Shown: positions 1,930 through 61,048, numbered from the stretch's first letter. The stretch is DNA of 64,000 bases from an uncultured Deferribacteraceae bacterium (GCA_947313855.1 CAMZNS010000010.1:12769-76768); one strand, 5' to 3'. The notes: a model not told the origin generated them from the letters alone. Translations and numbers: made by a program.

Positions 1930-2046
1930 GGCGGGGGGTGTGCGGGGGGTGTGGAGAGGTTGTGTGCGAGGGTGTGCGGGAGGTGTGGAGAGGTTGTGCG
2001 GGGGTGGTCGGTGGTCGGCAGTCGGCAGTCGGCAGTCGGTGGTCAG
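1930..2046. repeat. Intergenic G-rich tandem repeats (about 25-mer x2, then heptamer cggcagt x4)
   Basis: Direct reading of gtgcgg..gtggagaggttgtg duplicated, followed by ggtcggcagtcggcagtcggcagtcggtggtc. Confidence 0.8.
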
Positions 2047-3326
2047 AGTCGTCGCAAAACCGCACGGTAGAATCCGTCGGAGTTCTCGAGATGGGGCATG
2101 ATGTACCCCTGTCGCTCTAGGGTGAACTCGGTATTCGTACGCAAAAAATCTTGGATGACGGCTGTTGTTTCCGCCGGCTCGAGGGAGCAGACACAGTAGT
2201 GGATGTAGTGTTTGGTCAGGGGGGCAACATGGTGGAGCATGGCAAGCTGTATGGGTTGCAATGTTTGTATGTCGCATGAGTTTTTGATGGCACGAACTTC
2301 GGGATGGCGACGAACGGTGCCGAGGCAGGAGCATGGTGCATCGAGCAGTGTGATGTCGCACAGGGGCACATCTTGTGGTGTTACGTCCATGATATCCTTG
2401 TTGAGGGGGCGAACATTGGACACGTTGTAGCCTCGGAGGTAGCTTTTGAGGGTGTTGAATCGGGAGGGATTAATCTCCACAGCGTGTACGAGTGCGTCGG
2501 GTAGGAGTTTTGCCATGGCGACGGTTTTGCCTCCAGGTGCGGCACAGGCGTCTAGGATGTGCAGGGTGTTGTCGTTGACGTTGGTGTTGTCGTTGACGTT
2601 GGTGTTGTCGTTGGCGATTTTCTCCCCAAGCTCAACGGTTTCCAGTGCGACCATGGCAGAGCCCTTGTCCATAGGTAGTACGCCATGTTTCTGCAGGTCT
2701 GATTCGGTTTTCAGGTTTTGGGGGTGTTCGTCCACGCGTATAATTTTGCCCGTATTGAGGTCTAGTCCCCAGTAGACGGGGGGCGTATTGAGGGTTGTGA
2801 GTAGGGTGTGGAGTTCAGCTCCTGTGCAGTGTGTTTTGAGGTTGTTGATAAAGTTGTTGGGGAAGTCGTCGTAAATAGTGTGTTTTGCGAGGATACTCTC
2901 CTTGGTGCGTGCTATTTCCATGAGTATCCAGTTTACAAACGGTTTTTGGTGTTTGGGGGCAAGTTCAACGGTTGTGCTGACTGCGGCGTAGTCGGGTACG
3001 GAGTCCATGAAGAGTATTTGTGCAATACCCATGGCGATAATACTGCGTAGGGCGGGTGTGGTGGTGGATTTGCTGTGGGTATCGATTAGGGAGTCGATGA
3101 AGGGGAGGTGTCGCATGGTGTTCAGGAATATTTTACGGTAGAATTTGCCGTGTTCCGAGTTGAGGAAGAACTCTTCGCTGTAGGAGCCGTTGTACACTTG
3201 GAGGATGAGGGACGCCACAGTACGGCGTTCATTGGCGTTAGCGTTAGTATTGGCGTTAGCGTTAGCAACTCCTGACGGTGATGACTGAGGGTGTGCCTCG
3301 GTGTGTGTGTGCTTGTGTTCAATCAT
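2043..3326 (-). CDS. rsmB: 16S rRNA (cytosine967-C5)-methyltransferase RsmB/Sun
   Basis: SAM-binding motif LDACAAPGGKT and catalytic DAPCSCLGTVRRHPE. N-terminal NusB-like part. Contains in-frame tandem repeats (NVNDNT x3 at 2566-2616; ANANTNANAN at 3232-3268). Confidence 0.85.
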   Translation of the reverse strand: MIEHKHTHTEAHPQSSPSGVANANANTNANANERRTVASLILQVYNGSYSEEFFLNSEHGKFYRKIFLNTMRHLPFIDSLIDTHSKSTTTPALRSIIAMGIAQILFMDSVPDYAAVSTTVELAPKHQKPFVNWILMEIARTKESILAKHTIYDDFPNNFINNLKTHCTGAELHTLLTTLNTPPVYWGLDLNTGKIIRVDEHPQNLKTESDLQKHGVLPMDKGSAMVALETVELGEKIANDNTNVNDNTNVNDNTLHILDACAAPGGKTVAMAKLLPDALVHAVEINPSRFNTLKSYLRGYNVSNVRPLNKDIMDVTPQDVPLCDITLLDAPCSCLGTVRRHPEVRAIKNSCDIQTLQPIQLAMLHHVAPLTKHYIHYCVCSLEPAETTAVIQDFLRTNTEFTLERQGYIMPHLENSDGFYRAVLRRL

Positions 3327-3363
3327 TGTTCAGCGGGCTCCTTTTTTGGGGCGGGAAGTGGCT

Positions 3364-3418
3364 GTTAGCGTTAGCGTTGGCGTTGGCGTTGGCGTTGGCG
3401 TTGGCGTTGCGTTGGCGT
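3364..3418. repeat. Intergenic hexamer tandem repeat (gcgttg/gcgtta x about 9)
   Basis: gttagcgttagcgttggcgttggcgttggcgttggcgttggcgttgcgttggcg. Confidence 0.9.
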
Positions 3419-3440
3419 GAAGGAGTCAGCCTAGCTCTGC

Positions 3441-9805: not shown

Positions 9806-9889
9806 AACAGACGCACAGACGCACAGACGCACAGACGCACAGACGCACAGACGCACAGACGCACAGACGCACAGACGCACAGACGCACA
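9806..9889. repeat. 8-bp tandem repeat (cagacgca x about 10)
   Basis: Direct reading. Immediately after the stop of the FadL-like gene. Confidence 0.9.
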
Positions 9890-14388: not shown

Positions 14389-14544
14389 CCCGCACGGCTG
14401 GCAATTGGCACGGCTGGTAATTGGCACGGCTAGTAATTGGCACGGCTGGTAATTGGCACGGCTAGTAATTGGCACGGCTGGCAATTGGCACGGCTAGTAA
14501 TTGGCACGGCTAGTAATTGGCACGGCTGGTAATTGGCACGGCTA
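14389..14544. repeat. 17-bp tandem repeat (ggcacggctggtaattg x about 9, with g/c and g/a variants)
   Basis: Direct reading. Lies between ccmA and ccmB. Confidence 0.9.
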
Positions 14545-24431: not shown

Positions 24432-26294
24432 ATGGATGGTTTGAGTTTATACAAGTTTTTTCGGTGCTGTAACGAAATTTTCGGGGCTAACGCTAACGCT
24501 AACGCTAACGCTGGTGCTGGTGCTAACGCTGGTGCTGGTGCTAACGCTAACGCTGGTGCTAACGCTGGTGCACAAGTGAACTCACTCCTACTATGGAACG
24601 ACGCCATCTACCTCAACCTTTACAAAAAAGAGGTACACTCGTTGGCATTTACGTTCGGATCTGGTCGTGCTAGCCTGTCGTTTGTGAGCGATACATTTTC
24701 GTCGAAGCAGGTGGGTATTTTCGAGAACCTACGTGGGGGCACTGTTGAGGGGTTTTCCACCCATGGACATGATCGCATCGGGTTTGTTGACATAGCGAAA
24801 CGTCGCCCTAGTGGTAAGTTGCAGCGGTTTCGGTTAGTGTTTGAGATTGTTGGTGCCATGTCCAACTTCTTTATCCTTGATGGCGAAACTGGTCGCATCC
24901 TCTACAACCTTAATCAGCGTAACATGGATACCGCTCGCTCTATCGGCGTGTCCCATGTGTATCAACCCTTTGCCTCCAACAAAACCATGGCTTTGGCGAA
25001 CTACAGCAGTGCCTCTGAGGCTCGACTTGACGCCCCTACGAATAGTTCGGCGTCTGCTGCTGCTGAGGCGTATTTTTCGTCCCTCGAAGGGTTCTCCAAA
25101 CCACTTGTACGCGAGGCTGTTGATCTGGTTGAGTCGCACGGTTACGATGTGGCGTTGGAGTATATTTTCCATGAAATAAATATGGGCACCGACTTTTACG
25201 CCCAAGACGCCACCCTATTGCCCTTTACAAGGCATGTCTGTGGTATGGATGATTTCGCCAATGTGGGGGGTACATCCCCTGAGACACCCCCTGAGACACC
25301 CCCTGTTGAGGGAGCAAAGTGGCGTGCATACAACTTTCTGAGCCCAGAGATGGGAGCGTATTTGCAGTCCTTGACACCGCGGGAAGCTACCCTGCGAATA
25401 TCTGTGGCAAGTAGTATTCGTAAGGGGCTTAAAAAATATACTCAGCTGTGCAAAGGCTTACGTACCGAGTTGGAGAACGCCTCAAACTACGAAAAATATC
25501 GCCAAGAGGCAGACCTACTAAAGATGAACCTACACACTGTTCGAGGTCGCGGCGTCTACAGCCTCACCAAATACACCCCTGATGGCGTTGAATCGAATAT
25601 CCGATACACCTACAACAGCGATCTACATGTTCACGACTACATGAAACGACTCTACCACCGTGCAGGACGACTCGAACGAGGTATCCCTGTCATACAAGAA
25701 AGACTCAACCTCATGGAAAGCTATGTGAAGTTTTACGAAGAACAGGAACACTACTGCGAAACAGCATCATACGGCGAACTGCTCTACATGCGAAGTAACG
25801 TGCTCGTGCTTGGCAAAAAAGGGGGGGAACCTAACAAACACGGATCCGGCGGTGCCAAAGGACGCAAAAAACTGGACGCTCGACTAAAATATGAAGGGTT
25901 CCACCGATTCGAAATAGACGGCGTACTGTGCATGCTCGGGAAAAATAGTCGCGGAAACCACGAACTACTACGTGAAGCACTGCCACACGACCACTGGGTG
26001 CACGCCAAAGGGATACCATCTGCACACGGAATAATACGATGGAACAACGACAACAACACTAACCATGACCAAGATAAACTGGACGCACTAATACACACAA
26101 TGGCTCAACTAGTTGCACACTACACCAAAACAACCAACAAACAGGTGGAAATAGACTACACAATACGCAAAAATGTGCGAAACGTAAAAGGTGCACCCAT
26201 GGGGTTCGTAACCTACAAAGGATTCAAAACCATCGCTGTGAACAAAATGAACAAAAACAAAGTAGAACAAATTATCGAGAACAGGAAGCGGTAA
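24432..26294 (+). CDS. RqcH/FbpA-like NFACT-family protein (ribosome quality control)
   Basis: C-terminal NFACT-R/DUF814-like HDHWVHAKGIPSAHGIIRWNND, coiled coil in the middle. N-terminus carries an in-frame hexamer repeat (ANANANANAGAGANAGAGANANAGANAGA, 24487-24570) and PETPPETPP (25276-25303). Confidence 0.65.
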   Translation: MDGLSLYKFFRCCNEIFGANANANANAGAGANAGAGANANAGANAGAQVNSLLLWNDAIYLNLYKKEVHSLAFTFGSGRASLSFVSDTFSSKQVGIFENLRGGTVEGFSTHGHDRIGFVDIAKRRPSGKLQRFRLVFEIVGAMSNFFILDGETGRILYNLNQRNMDTARSIGVSHVYQPFASNKTMALANYSSASEARLDAPTNSSASAAAEAYFSSLEGFSKPLVREAVDLVESHGYDVALEYIFHEINMGTDFYAQDATLLPFTRHVCGMDDFANVGGTSPETPPETPPVEGAKWRAYNFLSPEMGAYLQSLTPREATLRISVASSIRKGLKKYTQLCKGLRTELENASNYEKYRQEADLLKMNLHTVRGRGVYSLTKYTPDGVESNIRYTYNSDLHVHDYMKRLYHRAGRLERGIPVIQERLNLMESYVKFYEEQEHYCETASYGELLYMRSNVLVLGKKGGEPNKHGSGGAKGRKKLDARLKYEGFHRFEIDGVLCMLGKNSRGNHELLREALPHDHWVHAKGIPSAHGIIRWNNDNNTNHDQDKLDALIHTMAQLVAHYTKTTNKQVEIDYTIRKNVRNVKGAPMGFVTYKGFKTIAVNKMNKNKVEQIIENRKR

Positions 26295-26320: not shown

Positions 26321-27157
26321 ATGAACGACACTAACACCCAACAACAAATAAACAACAAACCGATTGTGGGGAAGTACGGCTGGTACGACTACTTCAACCC
26401 CAACATCGGCTCACGGGCAACACGCAATACGAATAACCCCCACGGCGTTGTAACACGCAAGCACTCCCGAGGAGACAACCTGAACAGTAGCTTCACAAAC
26501 TTCACCGACAACCGATACATTTACAGCAACAACATGTGGAACGCCATCGAAAAATACGCACCAAGATACCCCGAAGTACGACCCGAAACCGTTTTCGACA
26601 ATAACAACAAAACTGTCCTTGAAGTTGGCATCGGTAATGGCGAATTCCTCATCAATCTGGCGGAAAATAACCCCGAAACCAACTTTATCGGATTCGAAGT
26701 ATTCAAAGAGGGGGCAACAAAATGCATACGCCGATGCAAGTCTCTGGGACTAAACAACGTTCGTGTGGTGCATTTCGATGCAATATTCTACATGCACCTA
26801 CTGGAAAAATCATCCATCAGCGAAATCTACGTTAACTTCCCCGATCCATGGTTCAAAAAACGCCACAGAAAGAGACGTATCATTAATCCGCAATTTGTTG
26901 AGCTAGTTGCAAGCCTGCTAAAACCTGATGGCGTGCTCAATATTGCCACAGACAACGAAGACTACGCCACAGGCTTGGACGGAATACAGCATACCCTAGA
27001 AAACTGTGCATCGGGTGGCACCCTCTCCAATATGCAGGGAGAACCATTCACCCACGACGACTCACACTACTTCCCCACAAAATACTACCGCAAGTTCGGT
27101 CGCCAACGCTCCTACTTCTTCAAGTACTATCGACCCAACACCAATGCACAAAAGTAA
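26321..27157 (+). CDS. trmB: tRNA (guanine46-N7)-methyltransferase TrmB with an Asn-rich N-terminal extension
   Basis: SAM motif VLEVGIGNGEFL and downstream TrmB core (FPDPWFKKRHRKRRI). About 60 aa of extra N/T-rich N-terminal sequence. Confidence 0.8.
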   Translation: MNDTNTQQQINNKPIVGKYGWYDYFNPNIGSRATRNTNNPHGVVTRKHSRGDNLNSSFTNFTDNRYIYSNNMWNAIEKYAPRYPEVRPETVFDNNNKTVLEVGIGNGEFLINLAENNPETNFIGFEVFKEGATKCIRRCKSLGLNNVRVVHFDAIFYMHLLEKSSISEIYVNFPDPWFKKRHRKRRIINPQFVELVASLLKPDGVLNIATDNEDYATGLDGIQHTLENCASGGTLSNMQGEPFTHDDSHYFPTKYYRKFGRQRSYFFKYYRPNTNAQK

Positions 27158-33006: not shown

Positions 33007-34659
33007 ATGTTTTTTATGAAGACAAGGTATGTATTACTTTACTTATTAGGCATGGCAATAATCGCAACCTACATGCTGACTGCAGTGGCGTGGGCTGAAT
33101 CGGATGACCTTGACTCCGAAAATACCACCAGAAATACCACCGAAAATACCGACAACTACAGCGACGCCGGAAGCGACACAGCAGCGTACGACTTCGCATA
33201 CAACACCAGTGTGGACTATCGAAGCATACGAGAACGTGCCATACAATTCTCCACCACCACGGCCGTCAACAACATGAACAGCATAAACAACAACAACCTC
33301 ATACTCGCCAACATATTTATCTATAACCAAAGCCAGCAAAAAAACGTTGCATTTGTTGACAAAAGCAACCTCACAATATATGTGGGAACTTACCAAGGCG
33401 ATAAACTCGAAATAACCGATACATTCGACATCCTAGTCGGTGAAGCAGAGGGGGACAAAGTACGCGAAGGGGATCGAAAAACACCCGAAGGGGTCTACTA
33501 CACCGTGGACTACCTAAGCAATAAATACCTCACAAACCGATACGGAAACCAAGTGGGAAATATCTACGGCACAGGAGCTTTCCCCATCAACTACCCCAAC
33601 ATTGTCGACAAAATAGAAGGGCGAGGCGGAAGCGGTATCTGGATACACGGACTCAACCCCGAAAAACACAAACCCGTTACCCTCGGGTGCATCGCCATGG
33701 GGAACGAACGATTCGACCGACTAATGACCTACATGAACGTAGGGGTGACCACGGTCATCGGCGAAACACTAAACTTTACCCCCGACAGGGATGCCTACCT
33801 AAAGGAAAAAACTCGCTACTACAACTTCATCGAAAACTTCACAAACGCTTGGAGCACAAACAATTACGACGCTTACGCCGAAATGTTCCACCAACAGTTT
33901 AGAACACCAGCAGGGGTCAGGCGTGGAAGCTTCCTTGGACGCAAAAAAAGCATAATGGATTACGGACTCTCAATCAACAAACAAACAAACAAAAACATTA
34001 CCAACACAACAAACACCGTGGAAACAACAGGGGCAACTCTTGCCGAAAACAGACGCATCGCACAAATGCTCAAAGGGAACAAACTAATCACCTTCAACAA
34101 CCTAACAGTATTCGTTGAGCGAGACCTAGTTGTCTACGACTTCAACCAACTCTACGCAACCAACAACCTCATCTCCTACGGCAATAAGCGTTACTACGTC
34201 AAAGATACTGCCAACGAACTCGATGGACGCAACGGACGCAACGGACGCAACGGACTGCAGGTAATATCGGAAGAGTTCACACCCAGCGATGCCAACACCA
34301 AAAAAGAGGCGATTATGCCTTACGTGCAAACATTCCTGCAAACGTGGATACAGGCTTGGGAAACCAAAGATGTGGACGGCTACACAGCAATGTACTCGCC
34401 GGCATTCCGCCACAAAGGCACAAACATGGGGCTAAGACAGTTTGCCGCATACAAACAAGGCGTATTCCAGAGGGCGGGGAACATCTCCGTGGAATACTCC
34501 AACGTAACAATCGAATCCATTGCCGCAGGTAGTGTTACCGTGAGCTTTACACAAAAATACTCATCAGACACCGTCGCCGATACGGGCAAAAAAGTCTTAG
34601 TGCTAACAGGGCGACCCGATCTATTCAGTATCCGCTCCGAAGCTTGGTTCAAACTGTAA
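33007..34659 (+). CDS. L,D-transpeptidase (YkuD domain) with two C-terminal NTF2/SnoaL-like (DUF4440-type) domains
   Basis: Signal peptide. Catalytic GSGIWIHGLNPEKHKPVTLGCIAMGN (His...Gly-Cys). Two copies of the pattern F..W..AW...D.D.Y..MF downstream. In-frame GRNGRNGRNG (34225-34253). Confidence 0.7.
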   Translation: MFFMKTRYVLLYLLGMAIIATYMLTAVAWAESDDLDSENTTRNTTENTDNYSDAGSDTAAYDFAYNTSVDYRSIRERAIQFSTTTAVNNMNSINNNNLILANIFIYNQSQQKNVAFVDKSNLTIYVGTYQGDKLEITDTFDILVGEAEGDKVREGDRKTPEGVYYTVDYLSNKYLTNRYGNQVGNIYGTGAFPINYPNIVDKIEGRGGSGIWIHGLNPEKHKPVTLGCIAMGNERFDRLMTYMNVGVTTVIGETLNFTPDRDAYLKEKTRYYNFIENFTNAWSTNNYDAYAEMFHQQFRTPAGVRRGSFLGRKKSIMDYGLSINKQTNKNITNTTNTVETTGATLAENRRIAQMLKGNKLITFNNLTVFVERDLVVYDFNQLYATNNLISYGNKRYYVKDTANELDGRNGRNGRNGLQVISEEFTPSDANTKKEAIMPYVQTFLQTWIQAWETKDVDGYTAMYSPAFRHKGTNMGLRQFAAYKQGVFQRAGNISVEYSNVTIESIAAGSVTVSFTQKYSSDTVADTGKKVLVLTGRPDLFSIRSEAWFKL

Positions 34660-34721: not shown

Positions 34722-36374
34722 ATGAAACATAAACACAACGCCCCTACTCTAAACACGCCTGTATGGAGCCCGAGAGCTACAACTATCTACACACTGACCC
34801 TTTTACTAACGGTTGGCATCATCCTAATCGCTACGTCCTCCACTGCTCATGCACGCAAGATGGTGTTTGAACCCAACAACGTGAAACATATTTCATACTT
34901 CCCGCAAACCGACTACTCACTAGACGTATACATTATCACAGGTGCAAAACCCGGTGCAACAGGACTCATTGTCGGCGGTATTCAGGGCGACGAAGAGGGG
35001 GGCTACCTTGCCGCTGATCAGTTTATCGACATGCAGGTGGATACCGGAACACTAATCGTTATCCCACGTGCCAACGCAAAGGCTGTTGCCATTGCTGAGC
35101 GTGCAACGGCTGTGGACATGAATCGCCAATTCAAAAATATTACTTATGAAAAGATGCGTGGTGCCATTGAAACCATCAAAAAATATATCAGTGAAGCGGA
35201 TGTGTTTATTAATTTCCACGATGGCTGGGGGTTTCACCGTAAGGTGTACACCGATTGGTCGTATTCCCCTGATAGGTTCGGTCAATCGGTTGTTACCGAC
35301 TCCGACGAATACACATGTAGCAACGACACCATACTAAACCTACGTGAACCAGCATTCATAGCCATAAAAAGTGCCAACGAACGCATTCAGCTAGAAAAAT
35401 ACTACCTCGAATACTTCAACACAAGAACTTTTGAAGAAACATCGAAATACTACACATCCATGACAAACGCATCCACCTACTACGTACTGACAGCTGAATG
35501 CAAGCCTGCTTTCGCAATCGAGGCATCCAAAAACCTGCCAACGGTTAGAGACAAAGTCTTGGTACATGTTTACGCCGCCATCCCACTGCTAGCATATTAC
35601 GGCATTATCGTCAACGAATCGGTGTCGCCAGTGGTGGCACCAACCATGAACCATGTTGTTGTAGATGTGGACGGTACGGAGTATGCTGTGCAAGCGGGGC
35701 AAACCATCAACGTAACACAAGGCTCCACGATCACGGTGAAAAATATTTACGGCAACTATCGACGTGGCTACACTGTGGATATTATCGGGGTCAATGCGAA
35801 AGGGGAGCGTGGGCAGTTGGACACAAATACGCCCCATGTAATGTCTGAGCGTGGTAAGGTTGTGGCAAATGTCTACAAAGACTCCGTTAGCGTTGGCAAG
35901 GTGTTTTTCCGAGTGCAAGCACCTGTGCAAGCACCTGTGCAAGCACCTGTGCCTCGGGGAGGGGGCGAAATCTTGTCCGAAGGGCTAACCACACCGACAA
36001 CACCATCCCTGCTGGCTTCAGTCAATGGACAGATAGGCGTCTACCCTGTTGCTCAAAATATCGTACTCAACAAAGGGGACGCTTTCATACCCATCTATTT
36101 CCTCCTACCAAAAACAGATGTGCCTTATTCTGTTAACGTTATTAACATCAAGGGGTTTGTGCCCAAGGGGCTCCCTTCAGGTGTAAATACTGGGAACGAC
36201 ATGGGGCACACAATGGTTGCGGGCGTGTCTGACATGTTGGCACAGTATGCTGTTCCCCCCACTGCAGGGGATGATTTCGGTGTTGGCGAGGTGTTCCCCA
36301 TTGTGGTGGAGTATACCATGGCAGACTCTGTTGCTCGCAAGGTGGAAGTTTTTCGTATCCAAATCCTAAAGTAG
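34722..36374 (+). CDS. Secreted AstE/AspA (succinylglutamate desuccinylase/aspartoacylase, M14-like) family protein with a variant metal site, plus a C-terminal beta-rich extension
   Basis: Signal/TM anchor. GGIQGDEEGG where the family has G.HGNE.G (His->Gln), followed by the DMNRQF motif (family DLNR.F). In-frame QAPVQAPVQAPV (35914-35952). Start ATG 34722 (RBS AAAGGGGA). Confidence 0.5.
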   Translation: MKHKHNAPTLNTPVWSPRATTIYTLTLLLTVGIILIATSSTAHARKMVFEPNNVKHISYFPQTDYSLDVYIITGAKPGATGLIVGGIQGDEEGGYLAADQFIDMQVDTGTLIVIPRANAKAVAIAERATAVDMNRQFKNITYEKMRGAIETIKKYISEADVFINFHDGWGFHRKVYTDWSYSPDRFGQSVVTDSDEYTCSNDTILNLREPAFIAIKSANERIQLEKYYLEYFNTRTFEETSKYYTSMTNASTYYVLTAECKPAFAIEASKNLPTVRDKVLVHVYAAIPLLAYYGIIVNESVSPVVAPTMNHVVVDVDGTEYAVQAGQTINVTQGSTITVKNIYGNYRRGYTVDIIGVNAKGERGQLDTNTPHVMSERGKVVANVYKDSVSVGKVFFRVQAPVQAPVQAPVPRGGGEILSEGLTTPTTPSLLASVNGQIGVYPVAQNIVLNKGDAFIPIYFLLPKTDVPYSVNVINIKGFVPKGLPSGVNTGNDMGHTMVAGVSDMLAQYAVPPTAGDDFGVGEVFPIVVEYTMADSVARKVEVFRIQILK

Positions 36375-36390: not shown

Positions 36391-37425
36391 ATGGAGTTGA
36401 GCTTCATCAACAACCTGCAACGCCACTTCAACCCTTCGGGGGGTGTGGACGGTATTGGGGATGATGGTGTTTTTGTGTCACCCTACATTTACGTTAGCGA
36501 TACCGTTGTGGAGGGGGTACATTTCCACCCCACCACGCCACGTAAGCATGTGTTGCACTACCTATTCACGTCGAATATTAGCGATATGGCTGCCATGGGG
36601 GCGAAGGCTGAGTATGGGATACTCAACATTAGTGCCCCTGTGGCGTTTCTGTCTTCGGAAACAGCTAGCACCATCAAAGAGCTGTGCCATGCGAACGGGA
36701 TTCGCCTTATTGGTGGAGATACTTGTGGCGGCTCCAGTGTTGTGCTGTCCCTCACACTTTTTGGCAGGGCAGAGCATAATATTCTAACACGCTCGGGTGC
36801 CACGGCTGGGGATATCATATTCATATCGCGACCCATTGGTCTCACCAACATTGCCCTCGCCAACGAAACACAGCTGAGTCGTCGTTCTCACGAAACGAAT
36901 AACTCAGTGGAGTTGGGAAATCCATTGGAAGGGGAACTCGACCTGTACTACCACTACAACCGCCCTCCGGAGACGAAACTAGGTCTGCACCTAGCTGCCA
37001 CCGGTGTTGTAACATCGTGCATGGACATATCCGACGGACTCGGTGTTGACCTAACAAGGCTCGGGAAAAGTAGTGGTGTGCGGTGTGTTGTCCATGAGGA
37101 CGCCCTCCCGTTGGAGCATATTGAAACCATGGTTGATCGTGTGCAAAAGTTGGGTGGGATGATCGGCGTTGATGGTACGGACGTGGGCAGGGTTTCACCT
37201 TTGGAGCACGCACTTTCGTCGGGACAAGAATTTGCACTACTGTTTACCGTTGCACCCCAAGAGGCGTACGGACTGCAAGAACATTTGCGAACAGCTTTGG
37301 GGCGTGAGATTATCCCTGTGGGTTGGTGCGAGGAGTATGTTGAAGGTGAGCACCATGGGGTTGTTTGTCTGCAGGATAGCACAACTGAGAGCATCGCCAA
37401 CAGAGGCTGGATACACGGTAACTAG
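36391..37425 (+). CDS. thiL: Thiamine-monophosphate kinase
   Basis: N-terminal GIGDDGVFV motif and PurM-like (AIR synthase-related) fold signature. 344 aa. Confidence 0.75.
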   Translation: MELSFINNLQRHFNPSGGVDGIGDDGVFVSPYIYVSDTVVEGVHFHPTTPRKHVLHYLFTSNISDMAAMGAKAEYGILNISAPVAFLSSETASTIKELCHANGIRLIGGDTCGGSSVVLSLTLFGRAEHNILTRSGATAGDIIFISRPIGLTNIALANETQLSRRSHETNNSVELGNPLEGELDLYYHYNRPPETKLGLHLAATGVVTSCMDISDGLGVDLTRLGKSSGVRCVVHEDALPLEHIETMVDRVQKLGGMIGVDGTDVGRVSPLEHALSSGQEFALLFTVAPQEAYGLQEHLRTALGREIIPVGWCEEYVEGEHHGVVCLQDSTTESIANRGWIHGN

Positions 37426-37460
37426 GCACACGGCAACTAGCCACACAGCACACAAAGACA

Positions 37461-39833: not shown

Positions 39834-40406
39834 TTAGGGTAGCTGTAGCGAATCCAAAATTCCACTTTGCAGGGGTAGCATTACGTTGCTGTCGCAATCT
39901 TGTATATGGTCGAAGCCTAGCAGGTGCAGTGTGCCATGAATGAGAAGGAACGCAACCTCCTTGGTAACGCTATGACCGAGGGTAATACTCTGTCTGAGTG
40001 CTACAGGTGTGCATATGATGATGTCGCCTAGGGGGATGGTGGTGTTGCTGGTGTTGACGGTGTTGCTGGTGTTGCTGGTGTTGCTGGCGTTGACGGTGGA
40101 CTGAATAAGTTGGTGAATGGTGGTAACCTCCTGTGCGTCAAACAGGGGGAACGTTAGAACGTCGGTGGGTTTGTTTACCTGCCGATGGGTATTGTTGATG
40201 TCTTGCATCTGGACTTCGTCCACCATGGTGAGGTGGATGGTGAACGTTGCTGTTGCGTTGTTGTCAGCCATGCCCATTTTCTCTACAACGGTTGCGTTGT
40301 TGACAGTACTGGTTGCCGCTCGGAGTAGTGTGGCGTTGATGTTCGCATCGCTGATATTTGCATCGCTGTTAGCGTGTGGGTTTACGATTAGTGTTACTTT
40401 GTGCAT
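39834..40406 (-). CDS. ybeY: Endoribonuclease YbeY (16S rRNA 3'-end maturation)
   Basis: Zn-binding motif HGTLHLLGFDH. In-frame NTSNTSNTVNTSNTT repeat (40039-40097) inserted in the core. Overlaps the phoH 3' end. Confidence 0.8.
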   Translation of the reverse strand: MHKVTLIVNPHANSDANISDANINATLLRAATSTVNNATVVEKMGMADNNATATFTIHLTMVDEVQMQDINNTHRQVNKPTDVLTFPLFDAQEVTTIHQLIQSTVNASNTSNTSNTVNTSNTTIPLGDIIICTPVALRQSITLGHSVTKEVAFLLIHGTLHLLGFDHIQDCDSNVMLPLQSGILDSLQLP

Positions 40407-41340: not shown

Positions 41341-42440
41341 ATTGTTTCCCCTTGGGCGAGTTTTTCGAGGTATCGTTTGATGTGTTTTTGAGTTGCGTGT
41401 GGTTTCCCTTGTAGTGCGAGTGCTACGATGTTGTGTTGTTGAGTTGTTTGTGCGTGTTGCGTTAGTGTGTGCACCCTTAGTGCGTACCGTTTGTTGGCTG
41501 TATTTGTTGTGTTGTCGAATTGCTCATCACCATGGCGTATCTCTGAGGCGAGGTTTGTTTGTGCGGTTTGGGTGTTGAACATTATGCTGAAGATATCTAT
41601 TCCTAGGGTGTGTGCGAGGGTGATTATCTGTGGCAATGAGTTTTCGTCCATGAGTTTTGCCATTTCGTAGGGGGTACGGTTGGCATTGAGGTTTGCTAGT
41701 GTGATTTTGGCGTTGTGGATTAGTGTTACTGTGTGGTGTGTGGGTGTGAGGTTGTAGCGTGCGGCGAACCTGAGGCAACGGAGTATGCGTGATGGGTCGT
41801 CTGTGAAGCTTTGGTCGTGGAGTACGGCTATGGTCTTGTTGCGGATGGCGTCCAAGCCGTTAAACGGGTCGAGGAGGTGTTCGGCGAGGTGTTCGGTTAT
41901 GTGTTCGGCGAGGTGTTCGGCGGTTATCTGCGTGCCCGTTGCGATGAGTGTGTCTAGTGTTTGCGTTGGGATGTTGAGTGCCATGGCGTTGATATTGAAG
42001 TCGCGTCGTGGCAGGTCGTGTTCGATGGTGGGCATGATGGTGATTTGTGGTTGTCCCCCTGATGTGAGGAAGGTTTCTGTTCGTGGCGTGGTGATATCGA
42101 TTTTGCGGGTGTTGTTGCCGTCGTTGTAGGATATGCTAGCTGTGCGGTATTTCTTGTATTGGCGAACGGTGGCATTGGGCATAATTTTGCCGTACTCTTC
42201 ACTTAAAACGCATGCGTCCATTTCGGTAATAATATCCACGTCGTGGCTGTTGTTGCCCATGATGATATCTCGCACTGTTCCGCCAACAAGCCATACGCCA
42301 CGATTGTCACGATTGTCACGATTGTCACGATTGTCACGATTGTCACGATTGGTGGAGCTTGTTTTTTGGACGATATTTTGTAGTAGGCGTATTGTTTTTA
42401 GGGTGGCAGTGCTGAAGTTTGGGTTATTGTGTGGGTTCAT
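41337..42440 (-). CDS. tRNA nucleotidyltransferase / poly(A) polymerase family protein (Pol-beta NTase head domain)
   Basis: GGTVRDIIMG...DVDI head motif. 367 aa without an HD domain. In-frame NRDNRDNRDNRDNRDNR insertion (42299-42352) immediately N-terminal to the catalytic glycine motif. Confidence 0.7.
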   Translation of the reverse strand: MNPHNNPNFSTATLKTIRLLQNIVQKTSSTNRDNRDNRDNRDNRDNRGVWLVGGTVRDIIMGNNSHDVDIITEMDACVLSEEYGKIMPNATVRQYKKYRTASISYNDGNNTRKIDITTPRTETFLTSGGQPQITIMPTIEHDLPRRDFNINAMALNIPTQTLDTLIATGTQITAEHLAEHITEHLAEHLLDPFNGLDAIRNKTIAVLHDQSFTDDPSRILRCLRFAARYNLTPTHHTVTLIHNAKITLANLNANRTPYEMAKLMDENSLPQIITLAHTLGIDIFSIMFNTQTAQTNLASEIRHGDEQFDNTTNTANKRYALRVHTLTQHAQTTQQHNIVALALQGKPHATQKHIKRYLEKLAQGETI

Positions 42441-42546: not shown

Positions 42547-43638
42547 TTATTGGTGTTTTCGGTATCGAGGGTGGAACTGCTCTAGTGTGTTGCGTTTGCG
42601 ATCGTCAGTAATGTGGGTGTATATTTGTGTTGTGGATAGGGAGGTGTGCCCCAAAAATATTTGGATAGTGCGTAGGTCGGCACCGCCAAAGAGCATATTG
42701 GTGGCGAATGAGTGTCGCAGGGTGTGTGGCGATGGTTTTTTGGTGAGCCCAGCTAGGCGTGCGTATTTGCGAACAATGTACCAGCATCCTTGACGAGTCA
42801 TCTGTTTCCCACTCCTGTCAACAAAAATAAAACCTTCATCGCGGATATTTTTGTTTTTTGGGGAGGACATGAAAACATGGCGACGCTCTAGTAAGGTTGG
42901 GTAGTCGTTTAAAAGTGAAAGGTACAAGGGGGCGTATCGTGTTTTGCCGCCTTTACCCACAACAACTGCCACACCGCGTTCTAAATCGATACTAGTAACC
43001 TTGAGGTTAATGACTTCGCTAACACGCATGCCAGAGGAGTATAAGGTCTGGATGATAACACTGTCCCGCTGACCTAAGTAGTTGTTGGTTTTGATTACGC
43101 CCAGGAGGGTGTCAACTTCGGTTTGGGTGAGGAAGGAGGGGAGCTTGTTGACGCTTCGCGGTTTGATGGTGCTTAATAAGGGGTTTACGGGGAGGTGTTG
43201 CTCTTGAACCAAGTAGTCGAAAAAACAGGAAAGACCGCTCAACTTACGCTGAATGGTTCTGTTGCCCATGGCATTGGTACGCATGTAAACAAGGAGTTGG
43301 GTGACGCCAGATCTGTCTAAGGAGCTCGCGAGGTTGTTTAAGTTGATGAGCATGTTGTTGACGTTGAATATGTCCGCACCATCAGCACCATCAGCACCAT
43401 CAGCACCATCCGTCGCCACAGGGGGGGATGCAGGCTTGTAGTACACAGTGCTAGAGTTGCCACCGTGACCATCAAGGTCGTAACTTGAAAGGAATTTCAG
43501 GAGCGTAATAACGTCATTGCTGTAGGAGATTAAGGTGTTCGCCGAGTAGCCCAACTCAAACTTGAGGTAGTCCTGAAGAAAAGACTCAAGGAGCTTAGAC
43601 ACAGACAACGCCTCAATATTAGTTCTATGCCTGTGCAT
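42547..43638 (-). CDS. xerD: Tyrosine recombinase XerD-like
   Basis: C-terminal HTLRHSFATNMLFGGADLRTIQIFLGHTSLSTTQIYTH (R-H-R-Y tetrad context) and N-terminal SAM-like domain. In-frame DGADGADGADGAD insertion (43377-43412). Confidence 0.8.
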   Translation of the reverse strand: MHRHRTNIEALSVSKLLESFLQDYLKFELGYSANTLISYSNDVITLLKFLSSYDLDGHGGNSSTVYYKPASPPVATDGADGADGADGADIFNVNNMLINLNNLASSLDRSGVTQLLVYMRTNAMGNRTIQRKLSGLSCFFDYLVQEQHLPVNPLLSTIKPRSVNKLPSFLTQTEVDTLLGVIKTNNYLGQRDSVIIQTLYSSGMRVSEVINLKVTSIDLERGVAVVVGKGGKTRYAPLYLSLLNDYPTLLERRHVFMSSPKNKNIRDEGFIFVDRSGKQMTRQGCWYIVRKYARLAGLTKKPSPHTLRHSFATNMLFGGADLRTIQIFLGHTSLSTTQIYTHITDDRKRNTLEQFHPRYRKHQ

Positions 43639-48825: not shown

Positions 48826-49320
48826 GTGTTGCCGGGTGTTATGGGGGGGCTATGCCCGTCCACGCCCACGTACAACCGTCCACGCCCACGCACAACCGTC
48901 CACGCCCACGCCCACTCACAACCGTCCACGCCCACGCACAACCGTCCACGACCACGCACAACCGTCCACGCCCACGCACAACCGTCCACGACCACGCCCA
49001 CGTACAACCTCGTACAACCGTCCACGCCCACGCACAACCGTCCACGCCCACGCACAACCGTTCACGCCCACGCACAACCGTCCACGACCACGCACAACCG
49101 TCCACGACCACGCACAACCGTCCACGCCCACGCACAACCGCCCACGCCCACACACAACCCCCCACCCCCACACACACCCCCCCACCCCCCCACCCACCCC
49201 CCCCCCCGCCCACCCGCCCCCCCCCCCCCACACCCGACCCCGCCCACGCACAACCGTCCACGACCACGCACAACCGTCCACGACCACGCACTCATCTTTC
49301 CCCACAATCCCGACTTCGTT
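48826..49320. repeat. About 500-bp array of a 21-bp tandem repeat (ccacgcccacgcacaaccgtc x about 20, with a/c variants), decaying into poly-C tracts (runs of 11 and 13 C)
   Basis: Direct reading. All six frames are open through it (ORF-track ORFs of 150-218 aa here are repeat artefacts). Minus strand carries G-runs. Confidence 0.9.
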
Positions 49321-54080: not shown

Positions 54081-54209
54081 TCAGAAACAGGGGAGGGTGC
54101 CATGTGCCCCTCCCTTTTTTGCGTGTAAAGTACCCCCAACCACTTGAAAGCGTGTCGCCATGTGCCTATATTTTGTTTGGTAATATGCCACGACGGAGGG
54201 GGAATATTT

Positions 54210-54890: not shown

Positions 54891-54986
54891 TGCTACACAT
54901 TTTACCATATAATAATTTGTACCCCCCCTTGAAAATATATTCTCTTTATGTTATGATTATTTCAGCTTTAATGCGGGAGTGTATTT

Positions 54987-55727
54987 ATGGCGAATAATGC
55001 GAGTACGATAAAGGTGGGTCGTAAATATATCGTTCTATCAGGGCTGGTCTTGCTAATATTAAGTACAGTTCTCTTTTCAACCATTGCGGTCGCAGCCCCC
55101 AACATTACTCCCCCTGCAGATAAAAGCGGTGCTGTTAGTGTTCCCTACGACGAAAACCCTACAACAGGTGCTGTTACGAGTCTTTCGTTTAGTGCCTCCT
55201 TAGAGGTTCCCGTGTTTGGTCGCTCTAACTATGCCGACGCCTATGGCTTATTTACTAGATACCCCGCCGTAGGCTTTACAGCTGGGTTCTCCACCCTTGT
55301 GAACCCCCATCACGAATTTCGATACAGTGTCGGTTTTAAGCGTGCTTTCCCCATAACCGTGATAGATAAAATTATTGAATACCCCCAACTCATGACTTTT
55401 ATGTCGTACAACAGTGTGGGGTTAGAGGGTAGTTACTACTATCGACCTGTACGTTGGTTTGGCATAGGACCTACTGCTAAAACTTATGTTGTGTTGGACA
55501 GAAAACCGAAGGGAATTGGTTTGCTCACAGGGACTAGGATCATGCAAGAAACAGAAGAGCTCTCCAATGCGATACCTATCGTTAGCGATATCGGTGGACA
55601 GGTACGGTACTACACCAAGGGTCGTCATTCGTTGTATGCGTCGTTCCTGCTTTCCAATTACTACAAGGGTAGCGATTCGTGGTTCTACACCCATGTTTAT
55701 TCAATAGGCGTAATTGTTGATTTGTAA
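54987..55727 (+). CDS. Secreted beta-rich paralogue P5 (most divergent, no Cys pair)
   Basis: Signal peptide TIAVAAPN. Similar size and Gly/Tyr-rich composition. Confidence 0.5.
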   Translation: MANNASTIKVGRKYIVLSGLVLLILSTVLFSTIAVAAPNITPPADKSGAVSVPYDENPTTGAVTSLSFSASLEVPVFGRSNYADAYGLFTRYPAVGFTAGFSTLVNPHHEFRYSVGFKRAFPITVIDKIIEYPQLMTFMSYNSVGLEGSYYYRPVRWFGIGPTAKTYVVLDRKPKGIGLLTGTRIMQETEELSNAIPIVSDIGGQVRYYTKGRHSLYASFLLSNYYKGSDSWFYTHVYSIGVIVDL

Positions 55728-55729
55728 CC

Positions 55730-56020
55730 GACGGAGGTGCTGACGGTCGTGTTGGCGGTGCTGACGGTCGTGTTGGCGGTGGCGACGGTGGTGTTGGCGG
55801 TGGCGCTGGTCGTGTCCGCGGTGCTTTCGGTCGGGGTGGCGGTGGTTTCGGTCGTGTTGGCGGTGGCGACGGTCGTGTTGGCGGTGCTGACGGTCGTGTT
55901 GGCGGTGGCGATGGTCGTGTTGGCGGTGGCGATGGTCGTGTTGGCGGTGGCGATGGTCGTGTTGGCGGTGGCGATGGTCGTGTTGGCGGTGGCGATGGCG
56001 GTGCAGTTCGGTGGCGATGG
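55730..56020. repeat. 21-bp tandem repeat x about 13 (ggtgctgacggtcgtgttggc with gcg/gat variants)
   Basis: Direct reading. Both strands are open through it (ORF-track artefacts 55697-56101 and 55737-56024). Confidence 0.9.
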
Positions 56021-56084
56021 CTGACTTTTGGGCGACGGGGCGACGGCGTTCCTGCTTGGCGGTGACAACTCGACTGCTAATCCC

Positions 56085-56663
56085 CTATGGCAGTTTCTCA
56101 ATCAACATGGTGTGTTGCGGGCGTAACCAGCCCTTGTTGTCAATGGTTTTCTCGAAGTGGAACTCTTTGCGACACATGGGTGTGTTGTCGTATGAGTCGT
56201 AGAAGTGGTAGCAGCACTCCTGCACGTATTTAAGGATTGTCCAGTGTTCAAACCTGCTTTTATACTGCAGTAGCACAACATGGTTGTCGCTTTTGGCAAT
56301 ATGTTTCTCCATAATCTCAAACAGATCCTCTTTCTCCCCTTTAAAAGTGTCTAGGTATGTGATTTTCATGTTTGTTTGCTGTTCGTCGGGCAGTTTGTAT
56401 CTACTGTAGTGTTCCACCAAGAACTTCATCTGCTCGTAGGTTATGCCATCGATAAACAGCTCCTCCATCCATCCTTCGCGTGTGTAAAACTGTTTTAGCA
56501 TGTCTAGTAGTAGTATGTTTGAGTCTTTGAATTTGATACCGTAAAGCAGTCGCACAAGGTTGAGGACGGTGTAAACGCCACACAACATGTTGTCACCTTG
56601 GGAGAGTGGATTGACCTTGTGGCTTTGGATATTGGCGTCGTCTAGTGTAAATATACTGCTCAC
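56085..56663 (-). CDS. Standalone papain-fold (peptidase C39-like) cysteine peptidase domain protein
   Basis: 192 aa, no signal peptide. QGDNMLCGVYTVLNLV (Q-x5-CG: oxyanion Gln plus catalytic Cys) and DNHVVLLQY (His motif), like the double-glycine-leader peptidase domain of ABC exporters but without the ABC transporter part. Confidence 0.4.
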   Translation of the reverse strand: MSSIFTLDDANIQSHKVNPLSQGDNMLCGVYTVLNLVRLLYGIKFKDSNILLLDMLKQFYTREGWMEELFIDGITYEQMKFLVEHYSRYKLPDEQQTNMKITYLDTFKGEKEDLFEIMEKHIAKSDNHVVLLQYKSRFEHWTILKYVQECCYHFYDSYDNTPMCRKEFHFEKTIDNKGWLRPQHTMLIEKLP

Positions 56664-58835: not shown

Positions 58836-58853
58836 GATTGTTAGGTTTCCCTG

Positions 58854-59507
58854 ATGGCAACAAAAACAACAGCAGTAAGGATGACCAAACCGAGGCGTGT
58901 GTCCATGGTGTTGCCGTATTTGGAGGCGAGGTACGGCGATGTTGAGTGTGCACTTCTCCACGATTCACCGTTTCAGTTGCTGATTGCGACCGTGTTGTCG
59001 GCACAGTGTCGTGATGAGCGAGTTAATATTGTTGCGCGTGAGTTGTTTGCACAGTATGGCACAGCGTGGGAGCTGGCAAACGCCGATCTGAGCCATGTTG
59101 CTGGCATCCTAAAATCTTTGGGACTGTACAAAACCAAGTCCAAAAATATCATCGCCCTGTCGACTATTCTTTGCGAAAAACACAACGGCACACCACCCAA
59201 CAACATGACCGACCTTGTGGCTCTCCCCGGAGTTGGTCGCAAAACAGCTAACGTTCTCCTTGGCGAGTGTTTCGAGGTTGAAGGCGTTGTTGTTGATACC
59301 CACGTAAATCGTATCACCAACAGGCTAGGGCTCACAACATCCAACAACCCCGTTGTCATCGAAAAAGAGCTCATGAAACTGCTCCCAAAAAACGAGTGGC
59401 GGAACTTTACCCATCGAACCATATATTTTGGTCGTGAAGTATGCATCGCACGCAAACCGAATTGCCACGACTGCGGTCTGCAGTCCATCTGCACCTACAA
59501 GCCTTAA
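58854..59507 (+). CDS. nth: Endonuclease III
   Basis: HhH-GPD (LVALPGVGRKTANVLLGE), catalytic Lys/Asp context, C-terminal 4Fe-4S cluster C-x6-C-x2-C-x5-C. Confidence 0.9.
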   Translation: MATKTTAVRMTKPRRVSMVLPYLEARYGDVECALLHDSPFQLLIATVLSAQCRDERVNIVARELFAQYGTAWELANADLSHVAGILKSLGLYKTKSKNIIALSTILCEKHNGTPPNNMTDLVALPGVGRKTANVLLGECFEVEGVVVDTHVNRITNRLGLTTSNNPVVIEKELMKLLPKNEWRNFTHRTIYFGREVCIARKPNCHDCGLQSICTYKP

Positions 59508-59590
59508 TAATAGTGTTGTAGTAGTAATGCTACTGTGCTACACTGGTGCAATATGTTGGTGTTGGGGTAAACTACCACGGAGGCATAGGG

Positions 59591-61048
59591 ATGGCAATGA
59601 AGTGGAGCAGGCTCTTGGAAGGCAAAACATTGGTCTCCAAACAGGACAACAAATCTGAAAATAACCCCATACGTACAATTTTTGAGCGTGACTACGACCG
59701 ACTCATCTACTCCACAGCATTCCGACGACTAGGACGAAAAACACAGGTGCACCCCCTATCCGAAAACGACCATGTACATAACCGACTATCACACACTCTG
59801 GAAACAACAACCGTAGGACGATCTCTAGGACGTATCCTTGTACAGAAATTACGCGAAGAGGACAACAGCAAGAAACTAGACACTTACGACAACAACGCCT
59901 TGGATAATATCCCAAACATTATGGTTGCGGCATGCCTTGCCCACGATATGGGTAACCCACCATTCGGACACAGCGGCGAAGACATACTCAGCAAACACAT
60001 GTTTCACGGCAAAAAAAGATACCCCGATCTATTCGAAAAACTGTCTGATGACGAAAATATCGATATCACTCGCTTTGAAGGGAACGCACAAACATTCCGA
60101 ATACTCACAAAACTAGAAATATACGGGAAAGAGGGTGGACTAAAACTAAGCATGCCAACACTCGCAACAACCATCAAATACCCGTGGGGACTACCTGATG
60201 CTCCCGAAGGCAAAAATAAATTCAACTACTACCAATCTGAAAAAACAGAATTCGAAACCCTAGTGGAAAAACTAGGACTCAAAACTGAAGCAGGGAAGGC
60301 GTGTCGCCACCCCCTATCATACCTACTCGAAGCCGCAGACGATATCTGCTACCTAATCATGGACTTCGAAGACGCACTAGACATGAACATTATCAGTGAA
60401 GCCAACTTCTACAAAGAGCTCGAACCACTATGCAAAAAACTAGGACTAGAAGGGGAGTGTGGGGACAAAAAAAATAGCAATAGCAACGTCAACAACGTCA
60501 ACAACGTCAACAACGTCAACAACGAAGCTAATGGCGATGACGAAAAAAAGATTTCACCTGGGAAGGTCAGGGGACAACTAATCAACAAACTAACACACAG
60601 AGCTGTGGACATATTCATGGCAAACTACGACAACATTATGGCAGGTAGGTTCAAAGGGGCGTTGCTTAACTGGGCGGGGAACAACAATATCCCATCAATC
60701 AAAGAGGAACTGGATAGTATTCGTTGGTTCTTCAGCGAAAACGTCTACGACACCGGTCGAAATATGAGTATTGATATCGGTGCATACCAAGTGCTGGGCG
60801 ATCTGGTGGACTACTCACTCAAACGACTCGACAACCATGTGCAAGCCCTGAAAAGTGAGGCGAATACTATCCCCGATTTTGACAGAAAACTGACGAAAGT
60901 TATGGGGATAGAAAGTATTCAGAATACCATCGAAAAATATGACGATAGCCACTACGAAGCCCTGCGTATGGTGCTGGACTACATCTCCGGAATGACAGAC
61001 AACTTCTCGGTGAATATGCGAAAAACAGTTCGAGGGCACAACCTATGA
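59591..61048 (+). CDS. dgt: dGTP triphosphohydrolase-like HD-domain protein
   Basis: FERDYDRLIYSTAFRRLGRKTQV, HSLE-like RLSHTLETT, CLAHDMGNPPFGHSGE. In-frame NVNNVNNVNNVNN (60484-60524). Start 59591 (GGAGG RBS). The ORF extends to 59546. Confidence 0.8.
   Translation: MAMKWSRLLEGKTLVSKQDNKSENNPIRTIFERDYDRLIYSTAFRRLGRKTQVHPLSENDHVHNRLSHTLETTTVGRSLGRILVQKLREEDNSKKLDTYDNNALDNIPNIMVAACLAHDMGNPPFGHSGEDILSKHMFHGKKRYPDLFEKLSDDENIDITRFEGNAQTFRILTKLEIYGKEGGLKLSMPTLATTIKYPWGLPDAPEGKNKFNYYQSEKTEFETLVEKLGLKTEAGKACRHPLSYLLEAADDICYLIMDFEDALDMNIISEANFYKELEPLCKKLGLEGECGDKKNSNSNVNNVNNVNNVNNEANGDDEKKISPGKVRGQLINKLTHRAVDIFMANYDNIMAGRFKGALLNWAGNNNIPSIKEELDSIRWFFSENVYDTGRNMSIDIGAYQVLGDLVDYSLKRLDNHVQALKSEANTIPDFDRKLTKVMGIESIQNTIEKYDDSHYEALRMVLDYISGMTDNFSVNMRKTVRGHNL

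Follow-up and report, generated by a model that had tools for sequence, protein, structure and literature searches.

A 64-kb stretch from an uncultured Deferribacteraceae bacterium (GCA_947313855.1, CAMZNS010000010.1:12769-76768; hereafter the window, all 64,000 nucleotides) carries short tandem arrays inside conserved housekeeping genes, in frame with the host proteins. These arrays are very probably variable-number tandem repeats (VNTRs) generated by a genome-wide, unusually active slippage-type process, with selection in genes keeping those arrays that are polar, located in loops, and built from units whose length is a multiple of three (3n). The ten arrays listed in the original prediction, which was made from the sequence alone, were all recovered in frame and in place, both as re-derived peptides and by Tandem Repeats Finder (TRF); TRF matches were 85-100%, mostly 100%, and periods were 6, 9, 12 or 18 bp. 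That they lie within well-conserved open reading frames (ORFs) was confirmed by Pfam and PDB matches of the hosts, and Pfam identified RsmB, NFACT/RqcH, MutS2, YbeY, a nucleotidyltransferase with a PolyA_pol head, a XerD-type integrase, an HD/dGTPase, and TrmB. Most of the proposed gene names stood on this basis, but two did not: the "L,D-transpeptidase" is a Csd6/Bd1075-type protein with YkuD and NTF2 domains, and the "AstE-like" protein is a Csd4-type Peptidase_M99. The Asn/Thr-rich N-terminal extensions noted for TrmB and a DUF493/YbeD-like protein are also present.

The window was compared with three sister genomes, B (GCA_947313805.1), C (GCA_947313785.1), and D (GCA_947313825.1), located through exact-sequence cluster look-ups, and with Logan re-assemblies of the sequencing runs ERR7998034 and ERR7998035. 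The look-ups also showed the window to be part of an NCBI contig of 78,248 bp. Gene order was the same in the window and its sisters across the entire window. In BLASTN high-scoring segment pairs, identity to the window was 95.4% for B and 88% for both C and D; global DNA alignment gave 95.9-96.6% for the window and B, and ~99% (98-99%) for C and D.

Applied to the window, TRF reported 113 rows, which were reduced to 55 non-redundant arrays at a score of at least 40. Nineteen arrays with a score of at least 50 fell within 13 of 50 genes; since 100 within-gene codon shuffles yielded an expectation of only 0.39 ± 0.65 (maximum 3), chance was excluded as their source. A 3n period was observed in 23 of 27 arrays within ORFs, and the remaining four were either weak 1.9-copy matches at chance level or located in 5' ORF extensions that the sisters show to be non-coding. 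The 25 intergenic arrays had periods of 7, 8, 11, 13, 16, 19, and 20 bp besides 3n. Coding arrays were 26-86 bp long. On the coding strand the arrays were 65% A+C and 53% G+C, and the residues they encoded were Asn (59), Ala (38), Thr (35), Asp (22), Gly (21), and Ser (18), with no Lys, Phe, Trp, Cys, or Met. Coding arrays additional to the original ten include rqcH TPPE, mutS2 DSNT, csd6-like NTT, ybeY SDANI, and cca AEHL (Table 1); others were found in SH3, ankyrin, FecR-like, and hypothetical genes.

The control consisted of 133 unrelated loci from bacteria, each 5 kb or longer (2.2 Mb in all), which were fetched when GTDB species genomes and JGI metagenomes were scanned with PhoH. Counting all arrays, the window held 64 per 100 kb (5.1% of bases) and the sisters 58-83 per 100 kb, as compared to 9.4 per 100 kb (0.6%) in the controls. 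Near-perfect arrays (at least 95% matches, at least 2.5 copies, and a score of at least 50) were counted per long ORF: they occurred in 9 of 48 long ORFs of the window (18.8%), in 17-23.5% of those of the sisters, and in 10 of 1,459 in the controls (0.69%), never in more than one ORF per control locus. The roughly 27-fold excess over the controls agrees with the earlier view of the arrays as unusual for a bacterium, and a high array density is a lineage-wide trait of the four genomes. The highest raw repeat density among the controls was that of a Gammaproteobacteria metagenome-assembled genome (MAG; locus L076, 109-7072, OZ220483.1) with a large GXY gene near phoH. This locus was considered as a second example and rejected because its repeats belong to a single collagen-like GXY protein whose units are 66-80% identical; hence the count of ORFs with near-perfect arrays was used.

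The lengths of the arrays change between genomes. Between the window and B, protein-level indels were almost all located in tandem arrays and consisted of whole units. At the DNA level, 69 indels were observed in 45.6 kb; 24 of the 26 within genes were 3n, 18 of these 24 in arrays, as compared to 10 of 43 between genes. Between C and D, arrays held 33 of the 37 indels observed over 38.4 kb; the four in coding DNA were all whole 3n units, and 11 of the 33 intergenic indels were 3n. For both pairs combined, 3n indels made up 28 of 30 in coding DNA and 21 of 76 in intergenic DNA (Fisher p = 3.4e-10). Coding indels inside arrays were exact multiples of the local period in 17 of 22 cases, and indels of both classes, coding and intergenic (55 of 76 for the latter), lay mostly within tandem arrays. 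The 3n contrast between coding and intergenic DNA therefore argues for one length-mutation process acting everywhere, with frame-breaking outcomes removed by selection in genes. The proposal that the slippage filling the intergenic DNA also acts in conserved enzymes is thus supported; the accompanying question of whether array lengths are always 3n was addressed with the coding indels, of which all but two of 30 were 3n.

Individual genes follow the same pattern (Table 1). In cca, the NRD array has 6, 4, and 0 copies in the window, B, and D (a change of -18 bp in B), and D reads TSTS-KRG-VWLVGG at this site; among C and D there is also a private TQH x3 array. The cca ORF of D (361 aa) is intact but uncalled in the source annotation, which has three short opposite-strand genes in its place (L164 3336-4496). 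Copies of the mutS2 ATGG unit number 3, 3, 1, and 1 in the window, B, C, and D, the single unit of C and D being ATSG, and the second mutS2 array (DSNT) is one unit shorter in B, C, and D alike (-12 bp in B). The NVNDNT array of rsmB has decayed to NDNSNDIDNDNSST in B and is absent in D, where the protein is 10 residues shorter; the site of the N-terminal rsmB array reads ANANANANDNDN in B and has a shorter, unrelated sequence in D. Both the copy number and the AN/AG order of the rqcH array differ in each of the four genomes, with indels of -12 and -6 bp between the window and B and 6 residues fewer in B. The ybeY array has ~5, 7, and 5 NTS/NTV units in the window, B, and D, and the alignment of the window with B places one additional NTS unit (+9 bp) in B. 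In xerD, the DGA array has 4, 3, 4, and 4 copies in the window, B, C, and D (-9 bp in B), with a private MES x3 array adjoining it in C and D, and the QAPV array of the csd4-like gene has 3, 3, 1.5, and 5 copies in the same order. Elsewhere the unit itself has changed. In the csd6-like gene, the N-terminal array site has ENT x3 (B) or ETA x3 (C and D), and the GRN site has GQD/GQN units (B) or GAG/GVG runs of unequal lengths (C and D). At the dgt array site, B is 7 aa shorter and C has NSH units. The N-terminus of TrmB is MNDTNTQQQ in the window, has an additional TN in B, and reads MNDTNINANANTQQQ in C and D. Different units in different species at the csd6 and dgt sites show that tolerant sites have been hit repeatedly. 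Finally, AAG in B (L162 ~14392-14560) replaces the TAG stop codon of the window within the thiL array, such that three units would be translated (ThiL followed by IKIHG x3); in B, this array is predicted to extend an ORF. Because the arrays differ by whole units between genomes, and several are absent or single-copy in the sisters, they are recent and not ancestral linkers: they are young, lineage-specific, variable-number repeats.

Table 1. Tandem arrays in the window. Gene coordinates are given in brackets; copy differences refer to sister genomes B, C, and D.
Array	Position	Strand or location	Unit, copies, and context
rsmB (2043-3326, -), NVNDNT, peptide ANDNTNVNDNTNVNDNT	2565..2616	-	18 bp x 2.7; directly before SAM (S-adenosylmethionine)-binding motif I (HILDACAAPGGKT)
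rsmB, N-terminal, ANANANTNANAN	3231..3268	-	18 bp x 1.9; upstream of NusB-like domain
ACAGACGC	9807..9889	intergenic	8 bp x 10.4; non-3n example; 16 bp (two units) different from B
ccmA-ccmB spacer	14392..14543	intergenic	16 bp x 9.5; absent in C and D, spacer 48 bp (L166, L168)
rqcH/NFACT (24432-26294), AN/AG x14	24486..24571	+	6/18 bp units; between NFACT-N first helix and first strand
rqcH, second array, TPPE	25272..25305	+	12 bp x 2.8; C and D have shorter non-repeat instead
trmB N-terminus, MND(TN)n TQQQ	26321..26345	+	variable dipeptide repeat
mutS2 (30344-32890), ATGG x3	31332..31369	+	12 bp x 3.2; before Walker A region
mutS2, second array, DSNT x2.3	32526..32553	+	12 bp units; linker before Smr domain
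csd6-like (33007-34659), N-terminal, NTT(R/E)NT	33119..33150	+	after signal peptide
csd6-like, GRN x3.4	34225..34255	+	9 bp units; extra region between YkuD and C-terminal NTF2 domains
csd4-like Peptidase_M99 (34644-36374), QAPV x3.3	35913..35952	+	12 bp units; downstream of catalytic domain
thiL (36391-37425)	37413..37450	+	15 bp units; straddles stop codon
ybeY (39834-40418), NTS/NTV x5-6	40039..40098	-	9/18 bp units; loop between DVLTFP and LGDIIIC strands
ybeY, N-terminal, SDANI x2.1	40337..40368	-	15 bp units; one more unit (+15 bp) in B
cca (41337-42440), AEHL/TEHI x4	41874..41922	-	12 bp units; between head and neck regions; D one unit shorter
cca, NRD x5.9	42299..42352	-	perfect 9 bp units; helix 1-strand 1 loop, just before GGTVRD
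xerD (42547-43638), DGA x4	43376..43412	-	9 bp units; in segment ~47 aa longer than E. coli XerD N-terminal domain counterpart
largest intergenic array	48856..49291	intergenic	20 bp x 22; upstream of two tRNA genes
dgt (59591-61048), NVN x4.6	60484..60524	+	9 bp units
dgt-murD	61493..61667	intergenic	20 bp x 8.9; indels of 6, 7, and 19 bp relative to B

Orthologues of the host genes are intact stop-to-stop ORFs in every genome covering them. The ratio of non-synonymous to synonymous substitution rates (dN/dS) relative to the sisters was 0.09-0.33 in array-bearing genes, and with intact ORFs under purifying selection, the array-bearing genes are functional. Catalytic motifs were intact in alignments to solved structures: HGTLHLLGFDH in YbeY, GGTVRD and DVDI in the CCA-adding enzyme, LRHSFAT...YTH in XerD, DAPCS and the second Cys in RsmB, and Walker A in MutS2. 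In the array-free valS, pfk, glyQ, and ccmF, dN/dS was 0.01-0.08, and PhoH was 100% identical between the window and B; these five, the most constrained genes, are all array-free. Array tolerance thus seems to track the general level of constraint, although the sample is small.

In alignments to solved structures and in two AlphaFold models, the arrays map to loops and linkers and fall outside the conserved fold. The original prediction had located the ybeY array inside the catalytic core, but here the alignment to Staphylococcus aureus YbeY (7y7o), a family alignment, and the AlphaFold model all point instead to a variable loop. Where 7y7o has residues 74-86 the ORF has residues 101-135, leaving ~22 extra residues upstream of the His motif, and among 42 family sequences the loop holding the array is the variable one. 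In the model, mean pLDDT (predicted local distance difference test) was 86.9, with 63-77 for the insert and 95+ for the core. Superposition on 7y7o gave a template modelling (TM) score of 0.81 per target length and 0.62 per query length, as would result from an intact core with the extra residues outside it. For the CCA-adding enzyme, homology to solved enzymes begins at residue 46-49, right after the NRD array, and the AlphaFold model puts the array between a helix (11-34) and a strand (49-52), with pLDDT 60-66. The ATGG array of MutS2 corresponds to a 17-residue gap in Bacillus subtilis MutS2 (8qpp) and the NVN array of the dGTPase to a gap in 2pgs and 3bg2. The NVNDNT array of RsmB stops one residue before the strand leading into motif I, the AN/AG array of RqcH precedes the region alignable to B. 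subtilis RqcH, and the GRN and QAPV arrays of the csd6-like and csd4-like proteins are outside the regions alignable to solved homologues. The proposed check on placement thus came out in favor of loop positions: the arrays occupy gaps relative to solved homologues and loops of lower confidence in the models. More distant YbeY relatives (56-57% identity; Logan, P0056 and P0057) share an older LFDxQEVxTIxQL insert and carry private repeats elsewhere, namely DNNAH x2 and a GNVGD/GNVGN run of ~20 residues; these suggest that the repeat-prone state is family-wide and extends beyond the genus.

Several further features deserve description. The hexamer GCyAAC (Ala-Asn) is the unit of three separate arrays, at 3231-3268, 24486-24571, and 3359-3418; the last of these (6 bp x 10) is non-coding and located just upstream of the rsmB start. 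Arrays with non-3n or variable periods were found in 5' extensions of the longest ORFs of a membrane protein (38447-38487), xerD (43638-43683), and a hypothetical protein of 438 aa (47597-47618). As judged from the sister genomes, these arrays probably lie upstream of the real starts and crowd the 5' untranslated regions. Five tandem paralogous genes at 51595-55727 encode signal-peptide proteins of 231-275 aa that resemble outer-membrane beta-barrels in appearance; no Pfam hit is on record for them in the sister loci. Arrays occur in two spacers of this cluster (52439-52462 and 54026-54077) and just 3' of the last gene (55742-55995). This last array (21 bp x 12) is open on both strands, with a minus-strand ORF at 55697-56101 that would encode ATANTTI heptads, but because it differs from B in non-3n steps (22, 43, 20, and 66 bp) it was taken as probably non-coding. 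Just past the right end of the window, the sisters have an ORF of 1184-1236 aa adjoining mraY with two Mur_ligase_M matches (L171 15491-19201; L172 14299-17853), possibly a murE-murF fusion.

The order of events that we favor is as follows. Units of 6-21 bp would be duplicated head to tail, and copies would then be gained and lost in intergenic and coding DNA alike, through either replication slippage or unequal recombination among units. In genes, selection would retain only 3n units encoding small polar residues (Asn, Ala, Thr, Asp, Gly, Ser), and the retained arrays would be those in loops or linkers able to take extra length. Old arrays would decay through point mutation into cryptic Asn/Thr-rich low-complexity segments, as in rsmB of B compared with the window. 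The arrays themselves would be mostly neutral or slightly deleterious passengers and not functional modules. Two observations weigh against slippage that is purely random: 16 of the 25 intergenic arrays also have a 3n period, and GCAAC/GTTGC shows a modest excess, occurring in 10 of 41 array units where 3.1 were expected. If the arrays were instead selected tuning elements, either adjustable loops and linkers or a contingency mechanism making protein variants in the host gut, then repeated hits with different units at the csd6, dgt, and xerD sites would be expected, and a residue composition biased to Asn, Ala, Thr, Asp, Gly, and Ser (without Lys, Phe, Trp, Cys, or Met), along with GCAAC enrichment in the units, could be read in the same way. 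However, loop tolerance also predicts repeated hits at one site, and a filter against disruptive inserts predicts the residue bias. The array-bearing proteins are housekeeping enzymes of the cytoplasm with unrelated functions, copy changes in 3n units are unable to switch expression, the sisters manage without several of the arrays (cca, rsmB, mutS2), the same process fills intergenic DNA, and no arrays are found in the most constrained genes (glyQ, pfk, valS, ccmF, phoH). An adaptive tuning role is unlikely and is not needed to explain the arrays.

The segments could also be repetitive in look only, as conserved ancestral linkers or family-specific structural elements, which had been named as a possible refutation. 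Some sequence near the arrays may fit such a description: the LFDxQEVxTIxQL segment before the ybeY array is older, being common to relatives at 56-57% identity, and the extra 184-aa region of the csd6-like protein is perhaps a second NTF2 domain. The arrays, however, are perfect in DNA (100% TRF matches), differ in copy number even between genomes at 96% and 99% identity, and are missing or single-copy in sisters and missing in all solved homologues. With NRD at 6/4/0 in cca, ATGG at 3/3/1/1 in mutS2, and NVNDNT absent from rsmB of D, we consider ancestral linkers very improbable. The other refutation that had been offered, decaying pseudogenes (here of a reduced symbiont genome), fails on the intact ORFs of sister orthologues, on dN/dS of 0.09-0.33, and on coding indels that are 3n. 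Assembly artefacts of metagenome bins are a related concern, given that the source is a MAG, that short-read assemblers can miscount repeats, and that Logan contigs break in two arrays; against it, the coding arrays (26-86 bp) are presumed shorter than an Illumina read and recur with intact ORFs in four independent assemblies, and the independent Logan re-assembly of ERR7998034 is 100% identical to the window across three arrays. Artefact and pseudogene together are left with hardly any probability. In that re-assembly, two contigs 100% identical to the window (L081, window 27391-31361; L163, window 31340-35942) end inside the ATGG and QAPV arrays; at 38-40 bp these are too short for repeated 31-mers, and the contig ends may reflect within-sample copy-number variants, although this is only a hint.

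Equally improbable are inserts arising from mutational or compositional bias alone, on A+C-rich coding strands and without slippage of units. Minus-strand genes are indeed 60% A+C and richer in Asn, Thr, His, and Gln, and the arrays are 65% A+C on the coding strand, but exact multi-codon periodicity in DNA and whole-unit change between genomes are beyond the reach of point-mutation bias. Compositional bias probably shapes which units persist and may shape the decay of old arrays. Other candidates were tried and rejected. N-glycosylation sequons were dismissed as a reason for N-x-S/T-rich units because the hosts are cytoplasmic enzymes. A shared mobile element (like repetitive extragenic palindromes, REP, or miniature inverted-repeat transposable elements, MITE) or an intein does not fit units that differ from array to array, with only the short GCAAC enriched and no Pfam domain in the inserts, and a structural repeat protein (collagen-like, ankyrin, or TPR) does not fit arrays that are absent from orthologues and solved structures.

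When GTDB species genomes and JGI metagenomes were scanned with PhoH, all matches were at 49% identity or less for the full-length protein and came from unrelated phyla, and ValS was at most 51% identical to any protein outside the genus, with best named matches in Deferribacter and Denitrovibrio. The window has 47.5% GC and is ~84% coding; in an Rfam scan it yielded two tRNAs and nothing else. Strand asymmetry is strong across the window (1-64000), with a plus strand that is G+T-rich throughout and a cumulative GC skew that climbs to 2.62; genes on the minus strand are 60% A+C on the coding strand, and Asn, Thr, His, and Gln make up 21.3% of their residues vs 15.9% in plus-strand genes. From the vent shrimp Rimicaris exoculata, four Deferribacteres MAGs of midgut origin have been described under European Nucleotide Archive project PRJEB50056, with genomes of 1.25-1.36 Mbp, 46.67-47.6% GC, long spiral cells, average nucleotide identity of 94.8% and 97.6% within pairs, and 87% between both species (Aube et al. 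2022; PMC9636832). The four genomes studied here match this description in GC, pairwise identities, and Csd4/Csd6 cell-shape genes. Based on this fit, the window probably derives from Candidatus Rimicarispirillum atlantis (Deferribacterota), and the bacterium is a probable extracellular gut symbiont of a deep-sea vent shrimp. The main text of that paper and of the R. kairei symbiont paper make no mention of tandem repeats other than CRISPR.

What is described here is a known phenomenon, the coding VNTR, in a new lineage and at unusual density. VNTR (minisatellite-type) coding arrays are used for typing by multiple-locus VNTR analysis (MLVA), usually at few loci per genome and often in surface or secreted proteins. 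The arrays of the window resemble them in near-perfect head-to-tail units, whole-unit copy change between close relatives, and 3n units that keep the frame, but affect ~1 in 5 long ORFs, including those for rRNA- and tRNA-processing, repair, and recombination enzymes. In Plasmodium falciparum and Dictyostelium, hydrophilic Asn-rich inserts occur in loops of conserved enzymes, are length-polymorphic, and are thought to be born of slippage; they are associated with extreme AT bias and have mostly homopolymeric or very short units. The hydrophilic loop inserts in conserved proteins described here, with Asn as the commonest array residue, are similar; however, they are bacterial, with units of 2-7 codons and DNA that is A+C-rich and not AT-rich, at 47.5% GC. 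In contingency loci of Neisseria, Haemophilus, and Campylobacter, copy changes in units of 1-5 or 7 bp alter the frame or promoter spacing of surface or restriction-modification genes. There, as is proposed for the window, repeat slippage yields heritable, reversible variation, but here the coding arrays are located in cytoplasmic housekeeping genes (RsmB, RqcH, MutS2, YbeY, CCA-adding enzyme, XerD, dGTPase, TrmB, ThiL) and, because their units are 3n, cannot switch genes on or off.

On the scale of the genome, the arrays resemble those of Ehrlichia ruminantium, an alphaproteobacterium that is intracellular and AT-rich and whose coding ratio is very low (~64%) on account of long, repeat-filled intergenic regions. 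As summarized in a paper citing the original work, length differences between its strains come mainly from tandem repeats that expand and contract, its intergenic DNA is filled with arrays, and the repeat process is described as targeting non-coding regions (Collins et al. 2005 and Frutos et al. 2006, as cited in PMC10710844). To the extent that this summary allows comparison, both organisms are host-restricted with reduced genomes, and in both, tandem repeats drive length change and intergenic arrays are present; in the window, too, many intergenic arrays vary in copy number. The window differs in its 47.5% GC, ~84% coding density, phylum, probable extracellular gut lifestyle, and the many arrays in enzymes.

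It is possible, although we hold it only tentatively and on balance doubt it, that the Deferribacterota lineage of Rimicaris symbionts runs a distinct mutational regime with a specific cause, one that seeds and resizes arrays of 6-21 bp units in about one-fifth of genes. The cause may be the loss or alteration of a suppressor of slippage between short direct repeats, or may lie in very long, probably polyploid, spiral cells. If so, the lineage would parallel, in a bacterium of ordinary GC, the low-complexity proteome of Plasmodium and would offer a natural system for measuring the insertion tolerance of enzyme loops, and the GCAAC enrichment could mark a sequence preference of the mutational process. 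Already the four genomes, at 88-99% identity, constitute a natural experiment on insertion tolerance, in which the same loops of YbeY, the CCA-adding enzyme, XerD, MutS2, and RsmB have seen arrays appear, change in length, and disappear. For annotation and binning of this lineage the arrays are a warning, as they affect gene lengths, start calls, and short-read contig ends; they would also mark strains at high resolution, so that symbiont populations could be followed between shrimp and between vent sites. Raised slippage in a symbiont whose genome is reduced and of ordinary GC may, in turn, reveal which replication and repair functions keep minisatellites rare in bacteria.

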